Assembly: GCF_013122565.1 (NCBI RefSeq)
Contig: NZ_CP053258.1
Source of the DNA: Escherichia coli
Lineage (GTDB): Bacteria; Pseudomonadota; Gammaproteobacteria; Enterobacterales; Enterobacteriaceae
Length of the DNA: 64,000 nt
Reading direction: 5' to 3' (one strand)
In this document: positions 1-29,022 of the stretch, piece after piece
Layout: each line of letters begins with the position of its first letter
Position numbering within the stretch: position 1 is the stretch's first letter
Notes under the pieces: generated by a model
Database searches by the model: none
Told to the model about the DNA's origin: nothing
Seen by the model: only the letters and a program-made list of their open reading frames with translations
Translations under genes and position numbers: made by a program

Positions 1-125
1 CGAATGCTGCGGCGCAACGGGCGCTGACAGGCGGCAAGAAAATCATCAAAAGAGAGCGTCGAAGGCATTGCTTCGCGCATTTGCGTCAGAAAGGCGTCCG
101 GGAAATAAACGGTATGTTGGGCCAC
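1..125 (-). CDS. rsmF: rRNA m5C methyltransferase RsmF (YebU), N-terminal fragment; gene runs off the window start
   Basis: Reverse complement of 1-125 translates from GTG (123-125) as [41 protein letters not shown], matching the recalled RsmF N-terminus. Sits downstream of letB as in K-12. Not in ORF track because truncated. Confidence 0.75.
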
Positions 126-204
126 GAGCATATACCACTGGCAAAAAAACAGGCGCGCAGTTTAGCATAAACGCTCCGGCGCAGGCACGCCGGAGCAGTG
201 GGCA

Positions 205-2838
205 TTATTTGGGAAGCGCAGTTCCCCATTCACGCCACTCTTTCGGTTCACTTTCCTGCAACAGGAAGTGCTTGCCTTCCTGGGCTTTCGGTGCCAGTGG
301 CGTACCCGGAGGCGTGGCGAAGGCGATGCCGCCACGGATAAACTGGTTAAAGGTGCCGGTTTTCACTACGCCGCCCGTCAAACCAAAGTCCAGACTGTAA
401 CCCGATGCCAACCAGAAGATGGAATTGTTACGCACCAGGTGTTGATAGCGTTTACTGATGCGCATCGCAATCATCACGCGATCAGACAATGTCCCCAGCG
501 TCATTCCGGTAACCGTACCTACTTCCAGACCACGGAACAGCACAGGCGTACCAATACCTAACGAACCGGCTTCAGGCGCTTCAACAATAATGCTTAAGCC
601 ATCCAGGTAACGCGAATCAGTAATGGTGGCCTCTTGCAACTCAAAGTCGCGGCGAGGATTACCCCGACCTGGTTCGACGTTGATATACGGCTGGAGGATG
701 GTATCAAGATGCTCAACGCCCGCGGCTGAAATTTGCGGTGTGACCACCGAGAAGCGCGTACCGCCGCGGGCGAAGGTCTGGACATACTCCGGATAGAGCA
801 CCGCTTTTGCCTGCACTTCATTGCGCGCGGTAATCAGATCCAGCGTCTGGATTTGCCCGATATCAATACCGAGATAGCGAATTGGCATCCCGACCGCCAG
901 TTTTCCGGCATCGAAAGCGTGGAGCGTAATCTGCCCGCCAACCGCACGGGCTGCTGTTTCGGAAGCATACAGAATACGTTTGTCGCCTTTACGCTGACTG
1001 GCGCTGGCACCGCTGAGGTTATCGAAGCTAATGGCTCCCTTTAATGCTCTGGAGAGCGGGGATGCCTGTACGGTCAGGCCGCTGCCATTCAGCTGAACTT
1101 TCGCCCCGCCTTCTGCCCAGAACACGCTATTGCTGGTCAGAAGGTTGCGATACTCCGGCTTAATATGCAGATCGATATCAAACGCGTTAGCTCGCGGACG
1201 CACGGTAATCACTTCACCAACTTCAAATTTACGGTACAGCACTACCGATCCTGCCTGCACATCCGGCAGCGTCTCTGCACTCAAACTCACGGTTGTGGTG
1301 GGTAAATCGCTAAGGCTGTTCTCCAGCGCTTTTTCCAGATTTGCATACAGTGGATAGCTGGCTTTCATCTCGCCTTTATCGCCCGGCAGAATACGTATCC
1401 CGCCGTTAATCCATTCTGAGGCGCTGGCACCGAGAAACTCAACGCCATCCAGCCCCACCTTCACGTCGACACGGCTGTTGACGACAAATTTGCTATCGCC
1501 TTTTACCAGTTCGCGATGCTGAGGCTCGATGGCGACGGTAAAGGTAACGCCTTTGCTGGTGAGTTTACGATCAATAACCTGGCCTACCTGCACGCCGTGA
1601 AGAATGAGCGGCTGACCAGCATCAATACCGTAACTTTCCGGCGCGGTCAGGGTCAGCGTCAGAACATCAGGTTCATGCAGCAGTGCTTTTTCGCCTGGCA
1701 CAACAACGAACTCTTTGCGTGGCTCGCCATCGCCGGGCACCAACTCAAAGGTTTTGCCAGTCAGCAGGGCGCTGAGATTGGCATCGCTAAGGGATAATTT
1801 CGGGTTGCGTAATTCGATGCGGGTATTTTCCCGTAGCAGCGTAACGACGCTGGGATCAACGGTCATTTCTCCGGTGACTTTACCACCAGGATTTAAATCC
1901 AGTTTAGTCAGCTGTCCGACTTCCAGCCCCTGATACATTAACGGCGTCGAGTCGGCGGTTAATCCGGCCCCACTCGGCAGTTCCAGTTTTATTATTACGC
2001 CACGCTGGCTGTGGGCCAGATCTTCATACAGACCAAAGGTATCTTCCGCCTCGGCAGGTTTCGACTCTTCAGGTGAATCGAAGGCAATCGCACCGTTAAC
2101 CAGTGCCGCCAGACTTTCCAGTTTCACCTTCGCGCCACTGATACTGACGTTGGCATCAACGCCAGAAACATTCCAGAAACGGCTACCTTTTTTCACCAGG
2201 TCGGTAAAACGCCGCTCGATCAGGACATCAATCACCACGCCTTGTTTATTGGGATTGATGGCATAGTCGTAGACTTTACCCACCGGGATCTTGCGGAAAT
2301 AGACCAATGAACCGCTGTTCAGCGAACCGAGATCGGGAGCTTGCAGGTGGATCATCAGATCGCCGTTATCCAGCCGATACTTCGGTTGGGTATCGAGTGC
2401 GACAAAGTGATCCTGCTCTTTACCTTTACCTGGCATCATGCCGATATAGTTACCACCGACGAGGGCGTCCAGCCCGGAGACACCTGCCAACGAGGCCTTT
2501 GGCGTCACCAGCCAGAACTGTGTCTCTTCGCGCAGCGCATCTTTCATATCGGATTTGATGCTGACCTTGACTTCAATCTTACGAAGATCGTCGCTGAGGC
2601 TGATATCCTGCACTGTTCCGACTTCAACGCCCTGATAACGAACAGGCGTACGGCCTGGAACAATACCATCCGCCGACATAAAGTCGATGGTGACGGTATT
2701 ACCCCGGTCCTGATAACTGTCCCAAATCAGCCAACCGGCAATCATTAGCGCGATGAACGGCAGCAGCCAGAAAGGTGAGATACGGCGTTTATTTTTAATC
2801 TGCGCTTCAGTCGTCGAAGCGGGCGTTTCCTGACTCAT
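205..2838 (-). CDS. letB: Lipophilic envelope-spanning tunnel protein LetB (YebT), multi-MCE-domain
   Basis: ORF 205-2880; start trimmed to the [19 protein letters not shown] methionine, giving 877 aa. Overlaps the upstream letA stop as in the K-12 yebST operon. Confidence 0.9.
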
Positions 2839-4090
2839 GTGCATCCCAAAGTAAGCGGCTGTCCAGCCATTCCACAGCAAGAATAGTCAAAATTACCGCT
2901 GCGCCGAAATAAAACGCAGCCGGTCCCATAGTAAAAGCGAGAATCTGATCGCGATTAATCAGCGACATGGTTAAAGATATGACAAACAGGTCGAGCATCG
3001 ACCAGCGACCAATCCAGGTCACCATTCGCAGTAACAGAATGCGTGTGCGTAAACCTTGTTGGCATTTAAAATGAATGCTCAACAGTAAAGTGAACATGAC
3101 GATCACTTTAGTAAACGGAACCAGAATACTGGCGATAAACACGATTCCTGCAACCGCAATGTTGCTACTTGCCAGCGACATAATTCCGGAAAGAATTGTA
3201 TCTTCCTGCCGTCCTCCGTTCAGATAAATGATAGAAATAGGCAACAGGTTGGCAGGTAACAATAAGACGATTGACGCTAACAGCGCCGCCCAGCATTTTT
3301 GCAAACTATGACGGCGACGCAGGCGTAGCGGAATATGGCAACGCGGGCAGCGACCACGCTGATCAGGATAGCCGGTAAAATGGCACCCAAGACAGACACG
3401 AAGTTTCTCGTCCCTACGCGTAGCGGGGCGCTGCGGATAAAATCGCTCCCACAGCTCCTCAACATTAAGATGTGACAACGTCACCGTTGTTAAAATCACC
3501 AACGCCACAAAAGAGAACAAGCCGACGCCAGCCTGGATATGGGCATAATCCTGTACCTTTATAGAAGCAACGCCAATGCCGACCAGGTAGATATCCAGCA
3601 TTACCCACTCTTTAAGGCGCTCAAGCATCAGCAGTACCGGGCGTAAGTTCATTCCCAGTCGGTTACCAAACCATAAATAAGCTATGGAGGTCACCAGAAT
3701 GAGGGGGGCACCAATAACGCAGAAAAAGACCATCGACCCCGTTATCGTATCGCCCTGTTTGGTCATTTGCCAGATGCCTTGCATGACGTTGGCGTCGATA
3801 CGAATACCTAACAGCCAGATATGCAACAGCGGTTCGCCCCAGGCAAACGGCATCAGCAACAGCATGGTGAAAGCCATTGCCGCCAGGCGCGTTAGCGACC
3901 AGTCGCGCCCGTCGCGAATTTTTGCCTGACAGCGCGGACAATAGGCACTCTGATGAGAATTTATCTCGGGCAGGCTAAACAGCATGTCACATTGCGGGCA
4001 ACGTTGGTAATCACCACGCGGCAGTTCCTCGCCGATTGCCCTCACTGTTATCTTTTTTGTCGGCGTAATTTGTTGTGTGTTAAGAGCCAT
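2807..4090 (-). CDS. letA: Inner-membrane protein LetA (YebS), PqiA family
   Basis: 427-aa ORF starting [22 protein letters not shown] with paired Cys-rich zinc-ribbon-like motifs and TM segments; directly upstream of letB. Confidence 0.9.
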
Positions 4091-24180: not shown

Positions 24181-25542
24181 TTACTTCTCCAGTTGCTTCA
24201 GGATACGATTAACTTTATCAAAAGTTTCCTGATATTCCGCTTCTTCCTGGCTATCGGCGACAATTCCACCGCCCGCAGAGCAGAAAATTTGTCCGTTAAT
24301 GGCAGTCAGCGTGCGGATAGTAATGCTGGTGTCCATGTTGCCGCAAAAGCTCAAATAGCCAATGCTGCCGCACCAGGCATTGCGTCGCTGCGGTTCCAGT
24401 TCGTCGATAATTTCCATAGCCCGTACTTTCGGAGCCCCGGTTATTGAACCACCAGGAAAAGCTGCGCGCAGCAGATCGCTGGCGTGTAACTGTTCTGGTA
24501 GTCGCGCCGTTATGGTGCTGACCAGATGATGCACGGCAGGGAAGGGTTCCACCACGAACAGCTCTGGTACTTTTACCGAACCTGCTACGGCAACACGACC
24601 GATATCATTACGCATTAAATCGACAATCATCAGATTTTCGGCACGATCTTTCGCTGAGTTCGCCAGTTTTTCTGCTTGTTTGCTATCCTCCTGAGGATCG
24701 GGCAGGCGCGGTAGCGTGCCTTTAATAGGGCGGGTCTGGATTTCACTATTATCACAAAGAATAAACCGCTCTGGCGAAAGGCTTAAAATTGCACCCTGTT
24801 CAAGACGTAAAAAAGCGCTAAATGGCGCGCGGTTGGCCTGATTAAGCTGAAGGAATGCCTGCCATTCATCGCCAGAATAGGTCGCATGAAAACGCTGGGC
24901 GAGATTCACCTGATAGCAATCACCGCTGTGCAGATATTCCTGTACCTGGCGAAATTTTTCGCCGTACTGCTCGCGGGTCATATTGGATTGCCAGTCGGAA
25001 GTGAGCGTGAAATCTTCCTGCGGGGAGAATTGCTGGCTTTCCAGCCAGACCCGACGGGCATTGACATCATTATGACTCAGCAAAGAAACTGTTTGACGCT
25101 GGTGGTCGACAATGAGCGCCCAATCGTAGATACCCACTGCCATATCGGGCAGAACGATATCTTGTTCCGCAATTTCTGGCATTGACTCAAAACGGCGACC
25201 CAGATCGTAGCCAAACAACCCCAGCGCGCCGCCCTGAAATGGCAAATCTTCGTTATGCGCTGGGCGGATGTCTGCGCGATCCAGCACCCGCTGTAGCACC
25301 TGTAGCGGGTCATCTGTAGTCGTTGTGCGTTTTTCGCCTTCACTAACAACGGTTTCTTTACCGGAAGTGGTTAAAGTGCAAATCGGCTCGGCGACCACAA
25401 TATCAAAGCGACTATGCGGATGTTTGGCATAGCCGGAGTGTAACAACATCGCCCACGGCAGGTGGCTTAAGCGGGAGAAATAAAATTCAGCGGCGTCCTG
25501 ACGCCAGGGTAAAGTAATCACAGCGGGAGATAACGTCTTCAT
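24181..25542 (-). CDS. pabB: Aminodeoxychorismate synthase component I
   Basis: 453-aa ORF starting MKTLSPAVITLPWRQDAAEFYFSRLSHLPWAMLLHSGYA, with chorismate-binding domain. Confidence 0.95.
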   Translation of the reverse strand: MKTLSPAVITLPWRQDAAEFYFSRLSHLPWAMLLHSGYAKHPHSRFDIVVAEPICTLTTSGKETVVSEGEKRTTTTDDPLQVLQRVLDRADIRPAHNEDLPFQGGALGLFGYDLGRRFESMPEIAEQDIVLPDMAVGIYDWALIVDHQRQTVSLLSHNDVNARRVWLESQQFSPQEDFTLTSDWQSNMTREQYGEKFRQVQEYLHSGDCYQVNLAQRFHATYSGDEWQAFLQLNQANRAPFSAFLRLEQGAILSLSPERFILCDNSEIQTRPIKGTLPRLPDPQEDSKQAEKLANSAKDRAENLMIVDLMRNDIGRVAVAGSVKVPELFVVEPFPAVHHLVSTITARLPEQLHASDLLRAAFPGGSITGAPKVRAMEIIDELEPQRRNAWCGSIGYLSFCGNMDTSITIRTLTAINGQIFCSAGGGIVADSQEEAEYQETFDKVNRILKQLEK

Positions 25543-25615: not shown

Positions 25616-25795
25616 ATGTTTGCAGGTTTACCTTCACTCACCCATGAACAGCAGCAAAAAGCTGTCGAGCGGATCCAGGAACTGATGGCACAAGGGATGA
25701 GCAGCGGCCAGGCAATCGCGTTGGTGGCAGAAGAGCTGCGTGCCAACCATTCCGGCGAGCGAATCGTGGCGCGTTTTGAGGATGAAGACGAGTAA
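25616..25795 (+). CDS. yoaH: UPF0181 small protein YoaH, 59 aa
   Basis: ATG at 25616 preceded by AGGAG SD; translates to [59 protein letters not shown]. Below the ORF-track size cutoff. Confidence 0.8.
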
Positions 25796-25853
25796 CACAC
25801 TAATCCGTATTGATTTCGTTATACAAGCCGATGATTATTTGATTGTGAGAAAA

Positions 25854-25886
25854 AGGACGCTTTTTATATGTGATTAAAAGCGTCCT
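25854..25886. terminator. Hairpin between convergent yoaH and yoaC (bidirectional terminator candidate)
   Basis: Stem aggacgctttt / aaaagcgtcct with 11-nt loop, flanked by A-run and T-run. Confidence 0.55.
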
Positions 25887-25914
25887 GACCCATTTATGCT
25901 GATATAAATTTAAC

Positions 25915-26214
25915 TCAGACCAGTGCTTTTAGTTCTTCCTGCATATATGTTGAAAAGTATTCAGGATTTTTAATCACAGAGCGTTCACCTGTCTCCATTT
26001 TTTTTGCCCATCCAACCATTTTTTCCGTGAACCCAGGGTTCCAGCCTTCCTGGTCAGCTCGCGCCGTAATATCAGCGGCACTCGCGGGTACTCCCAGTTC
26101 TTTTAAATATTTAAAGATTCCCTTCGCCGTGCTTTCATTCATCGAACTTGGTGTTGGCGCTGATACATCCATGGCACCAATGAAATCCAGGGCTTTATCT
26201 ATTACAGCAGGCAT
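25915..26214 (-). CDS. yoaC: DUF1889 protein YoaC
   Basis: ORF 25915-26274; start trimmed to MPAVIDKALDFIGAMDVSAP (99 aa). Confidence 0.8.
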   Translation of the reverse strand: MPAVIDKALDFIGAMDVSAPTPSSMNESTAKGIFKYLKELGVPASAADITARADQEGWNPGFTEKMVGWAKKMETGERSVIKNPEYFSTYMQEELKALV

Positions 26215-26635
26215 ATTCTTATCCTTAAAATTAACCATGTTATCGATAAGGCTATATATGACCTTAATTTGCATCTAATATCAAAGGGATTATAACGATA
26301 TGGCACGAGTTAACCTGTTGACATTCAGGTGTTTTAAAGGTAGCAGCTCATGGTGTGTTATCCAGTAAGATGGAGAAAATTAACGGTCAGTCCGCACGCT
26401 ATAACCAGATTGTTCAGCTAAGAAAGAAAACCAGAGTTGCTAATCAAAGGGCGAACACAACGGCATAGTTATGTTTATTTATATAGTTAGTTTTATAGAT
26501 AAAATTGAAATTATAAAAATAAATAATGAATTAGCAGAAGCATCAACAGTAATATCTTATTCTCTGGTCGATTTATGTAAAACCGACCAGTATTATCGAT
26601 AAATTATCGTCTGACTTATTTTGCTTCGATAAAGC

Positions 26636-26980
26636 TTACACCGCAGCCACAATCTTAATTTCAACTTTATACTTCGGGTTCATCAAACCCGCTTGTACCG
26701 TGCAGCGCACCGGCGCATGACCCGCGACAACCCAGGCATCCCACGCTTTATTCATCGCCGCGAAGTCGTTTTTATCGGCCAGGAAAATGGTGGCATCCAG
26801 AATGCTCGATTTATTGCTGCCCTGTTTTTCCAGCACGGCGTCAATCTGCGCCAGCGTGTTGGCGGTTTGCTCAAAGGCATCGGCGTCGAGGTTTTCCGGT
26901 ACACCAGTGTAGTAGAGCGTGTTGTTGTGGATTACTACATCAGACCAGCGGGCTTCAGCATCGATACGAACGATAGTCAT
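26636..26980 (-). CDS. yoaB: RidA/YjgF-family protein YoaB
   Basis: ORF 26636-27028; start trimmed to MTIVRIDAEARWSDVVIHNN (114 aa). Confidence 0.85.
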   Translation of the reverse strand: MTIVRIDAEARWSDVVIHNNTLYYTGVPENLDADAFEQTANTLAQIDAVLEKQGSNKSSILDATIFLADKNDFAAMNKAWDAWVVAGHAPVRCTVQAGLMNPKYKVEIKIVAAV

Positions 26981-27087
26981 CATTTTGTCCTCATTATACT
27001 TCCATTTTCGTGCTGCAAAGACTGCCACAATGTGAGGTCGCCGTCATCACTTCAACTGGCGAAAGCGCCCTCATCCTGACATAATCC

Positions 27088-27103
27088 CTGTTCAAATCAA
27101 CAG
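27088..27103 (+). promoter_or_regulatory. LexA (SOS) box upstream of yoaA
   Basis: Exact CTGT-N8-ACAG (CTGTtcaaatcaACAG), 9 nt upstream of the yoaA GTG start, with a CATAAT -10-like hexamer at 27080-27085. Confidence 0.55.
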
Positions 27104-27111
27104 GGGGTAGT

Positions 27112-29022
27112 GTGACGGACGATTTTGCACCAGACGGTCAGCTGGCGAAAGCGATACCAGGCTTTAAGCCGCGAGAACCACAGCGACAGATGGCGGTAGC
27201 CGTCACCCAGGCGATAGAAAAAGGCCAGCCGCTAGTGGTGGAAGCAGGAACCGGTACGGGCAAAACCTACGCTTACCTGGCCCCTGCGCTGCGGGCGAAA
27301 AAGAAAGTCATTATCTCGACCGGCTCAAAAGCGTTGCAGGATCAGCTCTACAGCCGCGATTTGCCAACGGTCTCAAAGGCGTTGAAATACACGGGCAACG
27401 TGGCGTTGCTGAAAGGGCGCTCAAACTATCTCTGCCTCGAACGTCTCGAACAGCAGGCGCTGGCGGGCGGCGATCTGCCGGTACAAATCTTAAGCGATGT
27501 GATCCTCCTGCGCTCCTGGTCCAATCAAACAGTCGATGGCGATATCAGCACCTGCGTCAGCGTGGCGGAAGATTCGCAGGCGTGGCCGCTGGTCACCAGC
27601 ACCAACGACAACTGTCTTGGCAGCGACTGCCCGATGTATAAAGATTGCTTTGTGGTCAAAGCACGTAAAAAAGCGATGGACGCCGATGTGGTGGTGGTAA
27701 ACCATCATCTCTTTCTGGCGGATATGGTGGTTAAAGAGAGTGGATTTGGCGAGTTGATCCCGGAAGCGGACGTCATGATCTTCGACGAAGCCCACCAGCT
27801 ACCGGACATTGCCAGCCAGTATTTTGGTCAGTCACTCTCCAGTCGACAACTGCTCGACCTGGCAAAAGACATCACCATCGCCTACCGCACCGAATTAAAA
27901 GACACCCAGCAGTTACAAAAGTGCGCTGATCGTCTTGCCCAGAGTGCGCAGGATTTTCGTCTGCAACTCGGTGAACCAGGTTATCGCGGTAACCTGCGTG
28001 AGCTGTTAGCTAATCCGCAAATTCAGCGGGCATTTTTACTGCTCGATGACACCCTGGAACTTTGTTATGACGTGGCGAAACTGTCACTGGGGCGTTCCGC
28101 GTTGCTGGATGCGGCATTTGAACGCGCCACGTTATATCGCACGCGACTCAAACGGCTAAAAGAGATCAATCAACCGGGCTATAGCTATTGGTACGAATGC
28201 ACTTCGCGCCATTTTACTCTGGCTCTCACACCGCTCAGCGTGGCGGATAAATTCAAAGAGTTAATGGCGCAAAAACCAGGTAGCTGGATCTTTACCTCAG
28301 CAACGCTGTCGGTGAACGACGATCTGCATCATTTCACCTCGCGACTTGGCATCGAACAGGCAGAGTCGTTGCTGTTACCCAGCCCCTTTGATTACAGCCG
28401 TCAGGCGTTACTCTGTGTGCCGCGCAACCTGCCGCAAACCAATCAACCGGGCTCCGCACGGCAACTGGCGGCAATGCTGCGACCGATCATCGAAGCTAAC
28501 AACGGTCGTTGTTTTATGCTTTGTACCTCGCACGCCATGATGCGCGATCTGGCCGAGCAGTTCCGCGCCACCATGACGCTTCCCGTTTTGTTGCAGGGGG
28601 AAACTAGCAAAGGGCAACTGTTGCAGCAATTTGTCAGCGCCGGTAACGCGCTTCTTGTGGCAACCAGTAGTTTCTGGGAAGGGGTGGACGTGCGTGGCGA
28701 TACATTGTCATTGGTGATTATCGACAAATTGCCGTTTACCTCGCCGGATGATCCACTGTTAAAAGCGCGCATGGAAGATTGCCGTTTGCGTGGTGGTGAC
28801 CCGTTCGATGAAGTGCAGCTGCCGGATGCGGTCATTACTCTCAAGCAGGGAGTAGGGCGACTGATTCGCGACGCCGACGATCGCGGGGTTTTGGTGATTT
28901 GTGACAATCGGCTGGTGATGCGCCCTTACGGCGCGACGTTTCTCGCCAGTCTGCCGCCAGCGCCGCGCACCCGTGACATTGCCCGTGCGGTTCGTTTCCT
29001 TGCGATACCATCCTCCAGGTAA
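27112..29022 (+). CDS. yoaA: DinG-family ATP-dependent DNA helicase YoaA
   Basis: 636-aa ORF starting (GTG) MTDDFAPDGQLAKAIPGFKPREPQRQMAV, with Walker A AGTGTGKT. Confidence 0.9.
   Translation: MTDDFAPDGQLAKAIPGFKPREPQRQMAVAVTQAIEKGQPLVVEAGTGTGKTYAYLAPALRAKKKVIISTGSKALQDQLYSRDLPTVSKALKYTGNVALLKGRSNYLCLERLEQQALAGGDLPVQILSDVILLRSWSNQTVDGDISTCVSVAEDSQAWPLVTSTNDNCLGSDCPMYKDCFVVKARKKAMDADVVVVNHHLFLADMVVKESGFGELIPEADVMIFDEAHQLPDIASQYFGQSLSSRQLLDLAKDITIAYRTELKDTQQLQKCADRLAQSAQDFRLQLGEPGYRGNLRELLANPQIQRAFLLLDDTLELCYDVAKLSLGRSALLDAAFERATLYRTRLKRLKEINQPGYSYWYECTSRHFTLALTPLSVADKFKELMAQKPGSWIFTSATLSVNDDLHHFTSRLGIEQAESLLLPSPFDYSRQALLCVPRNLPQTNQPGSARQLAAMLRPIIEANNGRCFMLCTSHAMMRDLAEQFRATMTLPVLLQGETSKGQLLQQFVSAGNALLVATSSFWEGVDVRGDTLSLVIIDKLPFTSPDDPLLKARMEDCRLRGGDPFDEVQLPDAVITLKQGVGRLIRDADDRGVLVICDNRLVMRPYGATFLASLPPAPRTRDIARAVRFLAIPSSR

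Follow-up and report, generated by a model that had tools for sequence, protein, structure and literature searches.

What does Escherichia coli keep in the long, AT-rich spacer between yoaB and yoaC, and does any of it encode protein? The question was raised by an earlier note on the window, by which we mean the whole 64-kb stretch of DNA analysed here; the note described an AT-rich region upstream of yoaC, large for a simple promoter, with candidate small open reading frames (ORFs). Its coordinates are exact: positions 26215-26635 make up the entire yoaB-yoaC spacer of 421 bp, with 32.5% GC compared with 49.8% for the window, and the block at 26460-26600, which the note called extremely AT-rich, has 24.8% GC. 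According to the ORF list of the window, the genes around the spacer follow each other in the order pabB, yoaH, yoaC, yoaB and yoaA:

24181-25542, minus strand: pabB (ORF list)
25616-25795, plus strand: yoaH (ORF list)
25915-26214, minus strand: yoaC (DUF1889, 99 aa), the gene downstream of the spacer (ORF list and RefSeq)
26636-26980, minus strand: yoaB, encoding a RidA/RutC-family protein, the upstream gene, whose stop codon marks the edge of the spacer (ORF list and RefSeq annotation)
27112-29022, plus strand: yoaA (ORF list)

Both flanking genes lie on the minus strand, which places the spacer downstream of yoaB and upstream of yoaC, and the ORFs of the earlier note run on the strand opposite to both. 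The counterpart of the spacer in MG1655 is 1893712-1894132 and has equal length (the MG1655 coordinate is 1920347 minus the window position). Identity between the window and E. coli chromosomes reaches 99.7%, and the stretch is found in 5425 of 5426 complete E. coli genomes. RefSeq MG1655 and the near-identical strain 88-3493 carry the same genes and no feature between yoaB and yoaC, and 24 RefSeq genomes chosen over the identity range likewise show no annotation under the spacer. An Rfam scan of the spacer at E <= 10 gave best matches with E = 1.5-9, far under the gathering scores. The downstream gene, yoaC, is of unknown function, and E. coli becomes more sensitive to boric acid when it is deleted (PMC11502571).

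We believe that the spacer is very probably an ordinary non-coding composite of the yoaB transcript end, a fast-evolving and regulator-bound filler and the yoaC promoter. The earlier note was right that the region is too large for a simple promoter, as it holds a yoaB 3' UTR with a hairpin, the regulator-bound filler, a Rho-sensitive stretch, and a promoter with a leader. In the account that we propose, an Escherichia-specific AT-rich insertion of 840 bp would have brought yoaC between the convergent genes yoaH and yoaB. The yoaB mRNA would end 76 nt after its stop codon at a conserved stem-loop, with part of the transcription reading through, and read-through or spurious transcripts would cross approximately 230 nt of untranslated AT-rich DNA and be stopped by Rho before yoaC. 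This filler, which also carries an exact H-NS nucleation motif and at which the LysR-type regulator YhaJ is bound in vivo, may serve to separate yoaB read-through from the yoaC promoter and may have picked up its regulator occupancy. A conserved block of about 55 bp would then act as an activator-dependent yoaC promoter (YeiE, possibly YhaJ), and a conserved, unstructured A/U-rich leader with an AAGGA Shine-Dalgarno sequence would drive yoaC translation. The spacer would be long because it belongs to an inserted islet, because it must end the yoaB transcript, which in other genera runs into yoaH, and because it contains lineage-specific filler.

This division is reflected in the conservation profile of the spacer among ten diverse E. 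coli strains, in which variable columns amount to 2.6% at 26215-26330, 13.6% at 26331-26439, 14.2% at 26440-26559 and 5.3% at 26560-26635. Every functional element is standard in kind or already present in published genome-wide data, nothing points to a new family or mechanism, and the region as such is covered by existing data. The importance of the locus beyond annotation hygiene is small, the long spacer being explained by an old insertion together with ordinary transcript-end, insulation and promoter functions; its value lies in a regulatory layout for yoaC and in a worked example of a decaying one-gene islet.

The insertion is directly apparent from a comparison with other genera. A YoaC alignment search, limited to one genome per species, gave 64 loci, among which yoaC stands beside yoaB, yoaH, yoaA and pabB only in Escherichia; in Kluyvera, Buttiauxella, Citrobacter, Klebsiella, Raoultella, Atlantibacter and others it is found in unrelated contexts that vary by genus. 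In Salmonella, Klebsiella/Raoultella, Citrobacter and Enterobacter, the convergent genes yoaH and yoaB come to within 0-7 bp of each other at their stop codons; Escherichia therefore carries an insertion at this point, which here extends over 840 bp (25796-26635) and has 37% GC compared with 49.8% for the window. No source of the insert was found among plasmids or phages, the "plasmid" matches being mislabelled chromosomes or yoaC itself. Among Escherichia species the length of the yoaB-yoaC spacer ranges from 261 to 470 bp. Two cryptic clades have a gene for a 150-aa pentapeptide-repeat protein between yoaC and yoaH, and E. coli keeps only both ends of this segment; the gene was lost by deletion, and decay of the islet is therefore ongoing. 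E. fergusonii has a different ORF, of 299 aa, between yoaC and yoaH. In one E. coli strain, an IS1 element is inserted in the islet.

Two short ORFs on the plus strand of the spacer had been named in the earlier note, and the ORF list contains a third:

26300-26368, plus strand (stop codon at 26366-26368): ORF1, 22 codons, apparently a chance ORF antisense to the yoaC promoter (ORF list)
26370-26468, plus strand: ORF2, 32 codons, apparently a chance ORF (ORF list)
26471-26602, plus strand: a third ORF of 43 codons in the AT-rich block, apparently a chance ORF and absent from the earlier note (ORF list)

For ORF1, the ATG at 26300 and the 22 codons are as described, but the AGGGA sequence at 26285-26289 stands 10 nt before the ATG instead of 9; for ORF2, the ATG at 26370 is correct but we count 32 codons, not 31. 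Many small proteins of E. coli have been overlooked by annotation, and this speaks for ORF1 and/or ORF2 (22 codons from 26300, 32 from 26370) encoding small proteins, as do the AGGGA sequence before ORF1 and the observation that ORF1 is intact in nine of the ten E. coli strains, with a premature stop in the tenth. We nevertheless consider it highly improbable that either is a gene. Their lengths are those of shuffled DNA: in 2000 dinucleotide shuffles of the spacer the longest ORF starting with ATG measured 36 +/- 13.5 codons (P = 0.26 for at least 43 codons), and four ORFs of at least 20 codons were seen where 2.3 are expected. Conservation of the reading frames among relatives, the check that the earlier note itself had put forward, fails for every plus-strand ORF, with start, frame and stop all unconserved. 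In an interspecies alignment with five Escherichia lineages (E. albertii, E. whittamii, two cryptic-clade genomes and Escherichia sp. MOD1-EC7003), the ATG of ORF1 is replaced by ATC, ATA or CTA in all five, together with in-frame stops; ORF2 begins with GTA or GTG and then shows frameshifting indels and stops, and the 43-codon ORF is full of stops. Frameshifting indels are present in the spacer of all relatives compared. Decay is also seen within the ten E. coli strains, in which ORF2 has AGG for ATG in four and a premature stop in one, and the 43-codon ORF is broken in eight, by a premature stop in seven and a frameshift in one. The stop codon of ORF2 differs even between the window and K-12, and the changes in this ORF among E. 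coli strains are mostly amino-acid-changing. The apparent stability of ORF1 within E. coli is accounted for by its position opposite the yoaC promoter block, the most conserved part of the spacer (3 of 116 columns vary).

Other comparisons point the same way. When the spacer was searched for gene remnants by tblastx against 66 loci, scores were alike in all six frames, with no frame-specific signal, and none of the ORF peptides had a match in Pfam. No plus-strand RNA 3' end was mapped in the spacer, and read-through from yoaH on the plus strand is halted by Rho within yoaC, at 1894397(-) (PMC7815308). The spacer ORFs resemble ribosome-profiled small proteins (Weaver et al. 2019, bioRxiv 10.1101/511675; Stringer et al. 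2021, bioRxiv 10.1101/2021.07.02.450978) in being short and intergenic and in that one has a Shine-Dalgarno-like sequence, but differ from them in lacking start, frame and stop conservation and in that ORF1 is antisense to a promoter. The text of the Stringer et al. supplement, in an unverified format, contains no yoaB or yoaC entry and no number beginning 1891-1896. Judged by their sequences, the short plus-strand ORFs are chance products of base composition and not genes, and they should stay off the E. coli small-protein list.

On the strand of the flanking genes, the first element encountered is the end of the yoaB transcript:

26560-26635, minus strand: yoaB 3' UTR, 76 nt to the mapped RNA 3' end (Term-seq and SMRT-Cappable-seq; 5% of columns vary)
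26564-26590, minus strand: stem-loop at the yoaB transcript end, with an 11-bp stem and a 5-nt loop (inverted repeat and RNA fold)

Under each of three growth conditions, published Term-seq data map an RNA 3' end to MG1655 1893787(+) (PMC7815308 supplementary file 1), and SMRT-Cappable-seq reports a full-length yoaB transcript that starts at 1893335 and ends at 1893785, as well as a variant reading through from yoaB into yoaC (PMC6131387). These published ends map to 26560-26562 in the window, 2-4 nt past the stem-loop. The hairpin folds with -21.2 kcal/mol (z = -4.0; 0 of 200 shuffles were equally stable), and across six Escherichia lineages 93% of alignment cells pair and two pairs show compensatory changes; E. 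fergusonii carries the same hairpin. There is no U-tract 3' of the hairpin, where the stem is followed by AGAAUAAGAUAUUA, and a terminator scan of 25700-27200 found no site combining a hairpin with a T-run. The element thus has the G+C-rich stem-loop of an intrinsic terminator and, as it is without a U-tract, falls outside the definition of one. Unlike a canonical intrinsic terminator with its T-run, but similar to the U-tract-less hairpin 3' ends described before (PMC7815308, PMC6131387), yoaB has a stable and conserved stem-loop with partial read-through. We infer that this hairpin most likely protects the 3' end or acts as a weak terminator; the end may be made either by termination or by an exonuclease that trims transcripts released by Rho further downstream.

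Downstream of the mapped end, transcripts enter DNA that is both variable and Rho-sensitive:

26331-26439, minus strand: variable, untranslated stretch with more C than G, where Rho appears to stop read-through (Rho score; 13.6% of columns vary)

A published "orphan" Rho termination region, sensitive to BCM (bicyclomycin, a Rho inhibitor), lies at 1894019(+), which corresponds to position 26328 of the window (Rho score 3.15, P = 2.4e-6; PMC7815308 supplementary file 2). As the score was computed on 800-nt windows, this position is coarse, to within +/- hundreds of nt, and the read counts behind it are low (92/41 vs 67/94); the score could also in part reflect BCM-induced transcription of yoaC. 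On the minus strand, the C:G ratio is 1.8-2.25 over 26555-26436 and 26395-26276 (1.8-1.9 in the latter). The yoaC-sense strand of the spacer has no conserved ORF, and an RNA made from it would be untranslated. An ORF of 33-51 codons in yoaC sense, seen in three cryptic clades, was rejected as a gene: close relatives disagree at 12 of 33 residues, and in E. coli it is truncated to 10 codons. Judging by the Rho-sensitive read-through, this part of the spacer may at least serve as insulation.

The Rho-sensitive stretch forms one part of the filler, which as a whole occupies about 230 nt (~26331-26559) and is the fastest-evolving part of the spacer. Its other part and the predicted protein-binding sites nearby are as follows:

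26440-26559, no strand: AT-rich, fast-evolving filler with in vivo YhaJ occupancy (~25% GC; 14% of columns vary)
26493-26508, plus strand: LysR-type box TTATAGATAAAATTGA, the YhaJ site predicted by the ChIP-seq authors (sequence from PMC6765310 SI)
26596-26605, plus strand: exact match to the H-NS high-affinity motif, TCGATAAATT (predicted; motif definition from PMC2094087)

Compared with the cryptic Escherichia clades, the filler is only ~70% identical and contains many indels, and it has no counterpart in E. fergusonii and MOD1-EC7003, both of which retain the hairpin and the promoter block. It is possible, if somewhat unlikely, that these middle 230 nt have no function and are the neutral remains of an insertion in decay, in which protein occupancy is incidental to the AT-rich DNA. 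Their polymorphism of ~14%, the highest in the spacer, their indels and low identity, their wholesale replacement in E. fergusonii and the loss of the pentapeptide-repeat gene by deletion from the adjacent spacer would all be in line with such an origin, as would the chance-level and itself polymorphic YhaJ box of the ChIP-seq authors. However, ChIP-seq found strong YhaJ peaks at yoaC in EHEC, which are among the strongest in that pathotype (P down to 1.7e-99), and found them again in UPEC, and the same study lists yoaC among known YhaJ-regulated genes (PMC6765310). The insulation suggested by the Rho-sensitive read-through and the conservation of an exact H-NS motif likewise argue against mere debris.

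The H-NS motif TCGATAAATT is the only exact match in the 64-kb window and lies just 5' of the yoaB hairpin. In composition-matched shuffles of the spacer, an exact match has P = 0.007, and the five matches with at most two mismatches have P = 0.016; the exact motif is kept in E. coli, E. albertii and one cryptic clade. From this we infer that H-NS may bind at the spacer. A 10-bp palindrome, TTATCGATAA, occurs twice (26240 and 26593), the second copy overlapping the H-NS motif; the expectation is about 0.5 such repeats, and in other species both copies have lost their palindromic form. Its overlap with the H-NS motif apart, we attribute it to chance. In several respects the locus resembles the H-NS-silenced, Rho-policed AT-rich islets (Lang et al. 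2007, PMC2094087): the insertion is lineage-restricted, low in GC and subject to rapid turnover, and the spacer combines an exact tCGATAAATT nucleation motif amid weaker matches with a BCM-sensitive untranslated transcript. It differs in that the yoaC islet is tiny (0.84 kb, one gene), in that binding of H-NS is here a prediction, and in that yoaC is expressed and has the specific activators YeiE and YhaJ.

Occupancy of the spacer by YhaJ is a published observation. The peak centres in CFT073, 2045445 and 2045463 (PMC6765310 SI Tables S3 and S4), map to 26574 and 26556 of the window, and all four centre estimates fall at about 26556-26579, ~270 nt upstream of the proximal promoter block. This is an unusual distance for a LysR-type activator and speaks against our account. 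The predicted box TTATAGATAAAATTGA has two mismatches to TCAA-N5-TTGA, which is at chance level, and E. coli strains differ at two of its positions; a scan of the spacer with TCAA-N5-TTGA gave no match with at most one mismatch and three with two mismatches, compared with 3.6 expected. The best dyad in the spacer is TTAACCTGTTGA, the spacing of which is wrong for a YhaJ box. Like the YhaJ promoters yqjF, ybiJ, yhaK and yhhW (PMC5031710, PMC6765310), yoaC has YhaJ ChIP-seq peaks, in two pathotypes; unlike them, it offers no clear TCA-N7-TGA box, since the box in the spacer is not above chance and the peak is ~270 nt away. Because the YhaJ box is not borne out and binding of H-NS is a prediction, the spacer cannot be filed firmly with the H-NS islets or with the YhaJ promoters.

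The position of the YhaJ peaks also bears on whether the AT-rich block holds a distal, YhaJ-dependent promoter, which would give yoaC a Rho-attenuated leader of ~250-330 nt (attenuated near 26328) or would make a separate non-coding RNA. The usual binding position of a LysR-type regulator is -65/-35 of the promoter under its control (PMC5031710), and centres at 26556-26579 are ~270 nt from the proximal promoter. The minus strand has the promoter-like hexamers TTTACA-16-TAAGAT at 26581-26554 and a perfect TATAAT at 26515-26510, and the "orphan" Rho region lies on the same strand within the spacer. We regard such a promoter as unlikely, however, as promoter-like sites are no commoner than in shuffles (a consensus promoter scan gave two sites, compared with 2.9 expected) and the yoaB end is the only 3' end that Term-seq detects in the spacer (PMC7815308). 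Moreover, the block varies by 14% within E. coli and is missing in E. fergusonii and MOD1-EC7003, both of which still have yoaC with its proximal promoter, read-through from yoaB suffices for the Rho signal, and Rfam has no match for a structured RNA here. A more specific arrangement, in which YhaJ, at the distal edge of the block and beside the H-NS site, would drive or de-repress a distal promoter with a long untranslated leader that Rho cuts short shortly before yoaC, placing yoaC under conditional Rho attenuation or H-NS counter-silencing instead of a simple proximal promoter, appears to us quite unlikely.

The segment next to yoaC, about 115 nt of promoter and leader, contains the following elements:

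26289-26345, minus strand: candidate conserved yoaC promoter block (conservation; perfect -10 TATAAT at 26294-26289, poor -35)
26321-26310, minus strand: imperfect dyad TCAACAGGTTAA in the promoter block (dyad scan)
26337-26325, minus strand: imperfect dyad TTAAAACACCTGA in the promoter block (dyad scan)
26255-26284, minus strand: promoter-like pair TTGATA (26284-26279), 18 nt, CATATA (26260-26255), of putative function (cross-genus alignment)
26215-26236, minus strand: yoaC translation-initiation region GGTTAATTTTAAGGATAAGAAT, with the Shine-Dalgarno sequence AAGGA at 26226-26222, 7 nt before the ATG

The promoter block of ~55 bp is nearly invariant in all Escherichia species, and at 26215-26330 only 3 of 116 columns (2.6%) vary among the E. 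coli strains. A perfect -10, a poor -35 and dyads upstream form the pattern that would be expected of an activator-dependent promoter, and ChIP-exo has found YeiE bound upstream of RNA polymerase at yoaC, which it activates (PMC6237786 Fig. 3B). On the strength of its sequence and conservation, the block is probably the yoaC promoter. A second candidate is the pair TTGATA-N18-CATATA at 26284-26255, in addition to the TATAAT at 26294-26289: in other genera TTGATA-N18-CATAGT is the sole upstream sequence that travels with yoaC, and blastn conservation upstream of yoaC is confined to the last 25-80 nt. For the yoaC start site, the Cappable-seq supplement gave no match, and the SMRT-Cappable-seq tables give only the yoaB start (PMC6131387).

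The translation-initiation region GGTTAATTTTAAGGATAAGAAT is nearly invariant over more than 50 loci from ~15 genera, and the yoaC leader is best read as a strong, unstructured region of translation initiation. A pairing of CUUAUC with GAUAAG in the leader, with an apparent compensatory change in Kluyvera, was rejected (RNAalifold gave -0.64 kcal/mol and no covariation). We also rejected GGTTAATTTTAAGGATAAGAAT as coding sequence: it shows one-nt indels, and several genera have ACG or GCG in place of the upstream in-frame "start". The YoaC annotations of 107, 119 and 129 aa are, we argue, over-extended.

Across the compared loci, yoaC behaves as a roving module of one gene, and within Escherichia its neighbourhood is a hotspot for gene gain and loss. 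The neighbours of yoaC change with every genus and include a peptide transporter, a diol dehydratase reactivase, a TonB receptor and dusB, among others (loci L008-L066); in these loci the only upstream sequence that accompanies the gene is a stretch of about 75 nt, CTTTGATAT...CATAGTATA...GGTTAATTTTAAGGATAAGA. In many database entries YoaC is given a length of 107, 119 or 129 aa (window 26215-26274; P0002-P0006, P0022 and P0027). In other genera the upstream "start" is a non-start codon (ACG or GCG) and one-nt indels occur, which shows the start at 26214, giving 99 aa, to be the correct one.

Further differences between Escherichia genomes were found on either side of yoaC, at the following coordinates of the compared loci:

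L004, 3390-3842, minus strand: pentapeptide-repeat gene (Pfam PF00805), also in L005
L080, 1311-1732 and 3046-3945: extra features of E. fergusonii
L079, 1520-2580: IS1A element region of E. coli strain D72

In Escherichia sp. E1V33 and E. whittamii, the pentapeptide-repeat gene sits between yoaC and yoaH; it encodes 150 aa and matches PF00805 with E = 2.5e-20. The E. coli interval (window 25796-25914) consists only of the two ends of the spacer that holds this gene in those two genomes. The codons "IRIDFV" are part of what is left, and the pattern points to a deletion of about 450 bp. E. fergusonii carries two additional 70-aa genes between yoaA and yoaB, one of them DUF4177, and a 299-aa ORF between yoaC and yoaH for which a Pfam search gave no match. 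In strain D72, IS1A is inserted at the yoaC 5' end and in the spacer, so that yoaC is a truncated pseudogene and no more than the final 80 bp of the spacer remain beside yoaB.

Between yoaC and yoaH lies a near-perfect hairpin (window 25854-25886; AGGACGCTTTTTAT / ATTAAAAGCGTCCT), at which published Term-seq data place 3' ends on both strands, at MG1655 1894457(-) and 1894497/8(+) (PMC7815308). The hairpin is therefore a bidirectional terminator common to both convergent genes. A Rho termination region from the same study lies antisense inside yoaC, at window ~25950 (+), or MG1655 1894397(-); Rho halts yoaH read-through transcripts within yoaC, and hence these plus-strand transcripts do not extend into the spacer.

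The 10-bp palindrome TTATCGATAA occurs twice, by each end of the spacer (window 26240-26249 and 26593-26602, at a distance of 353 bp). This repetition is probably due to chance, since about 0.5 would be expected and other species do not conserve it. The distal copy overlaps the exact H-NS high-affinity site; it is also similar to the TTATCGAT... boxes that have been described for the YhaJ targets Z1211 and Z1651.
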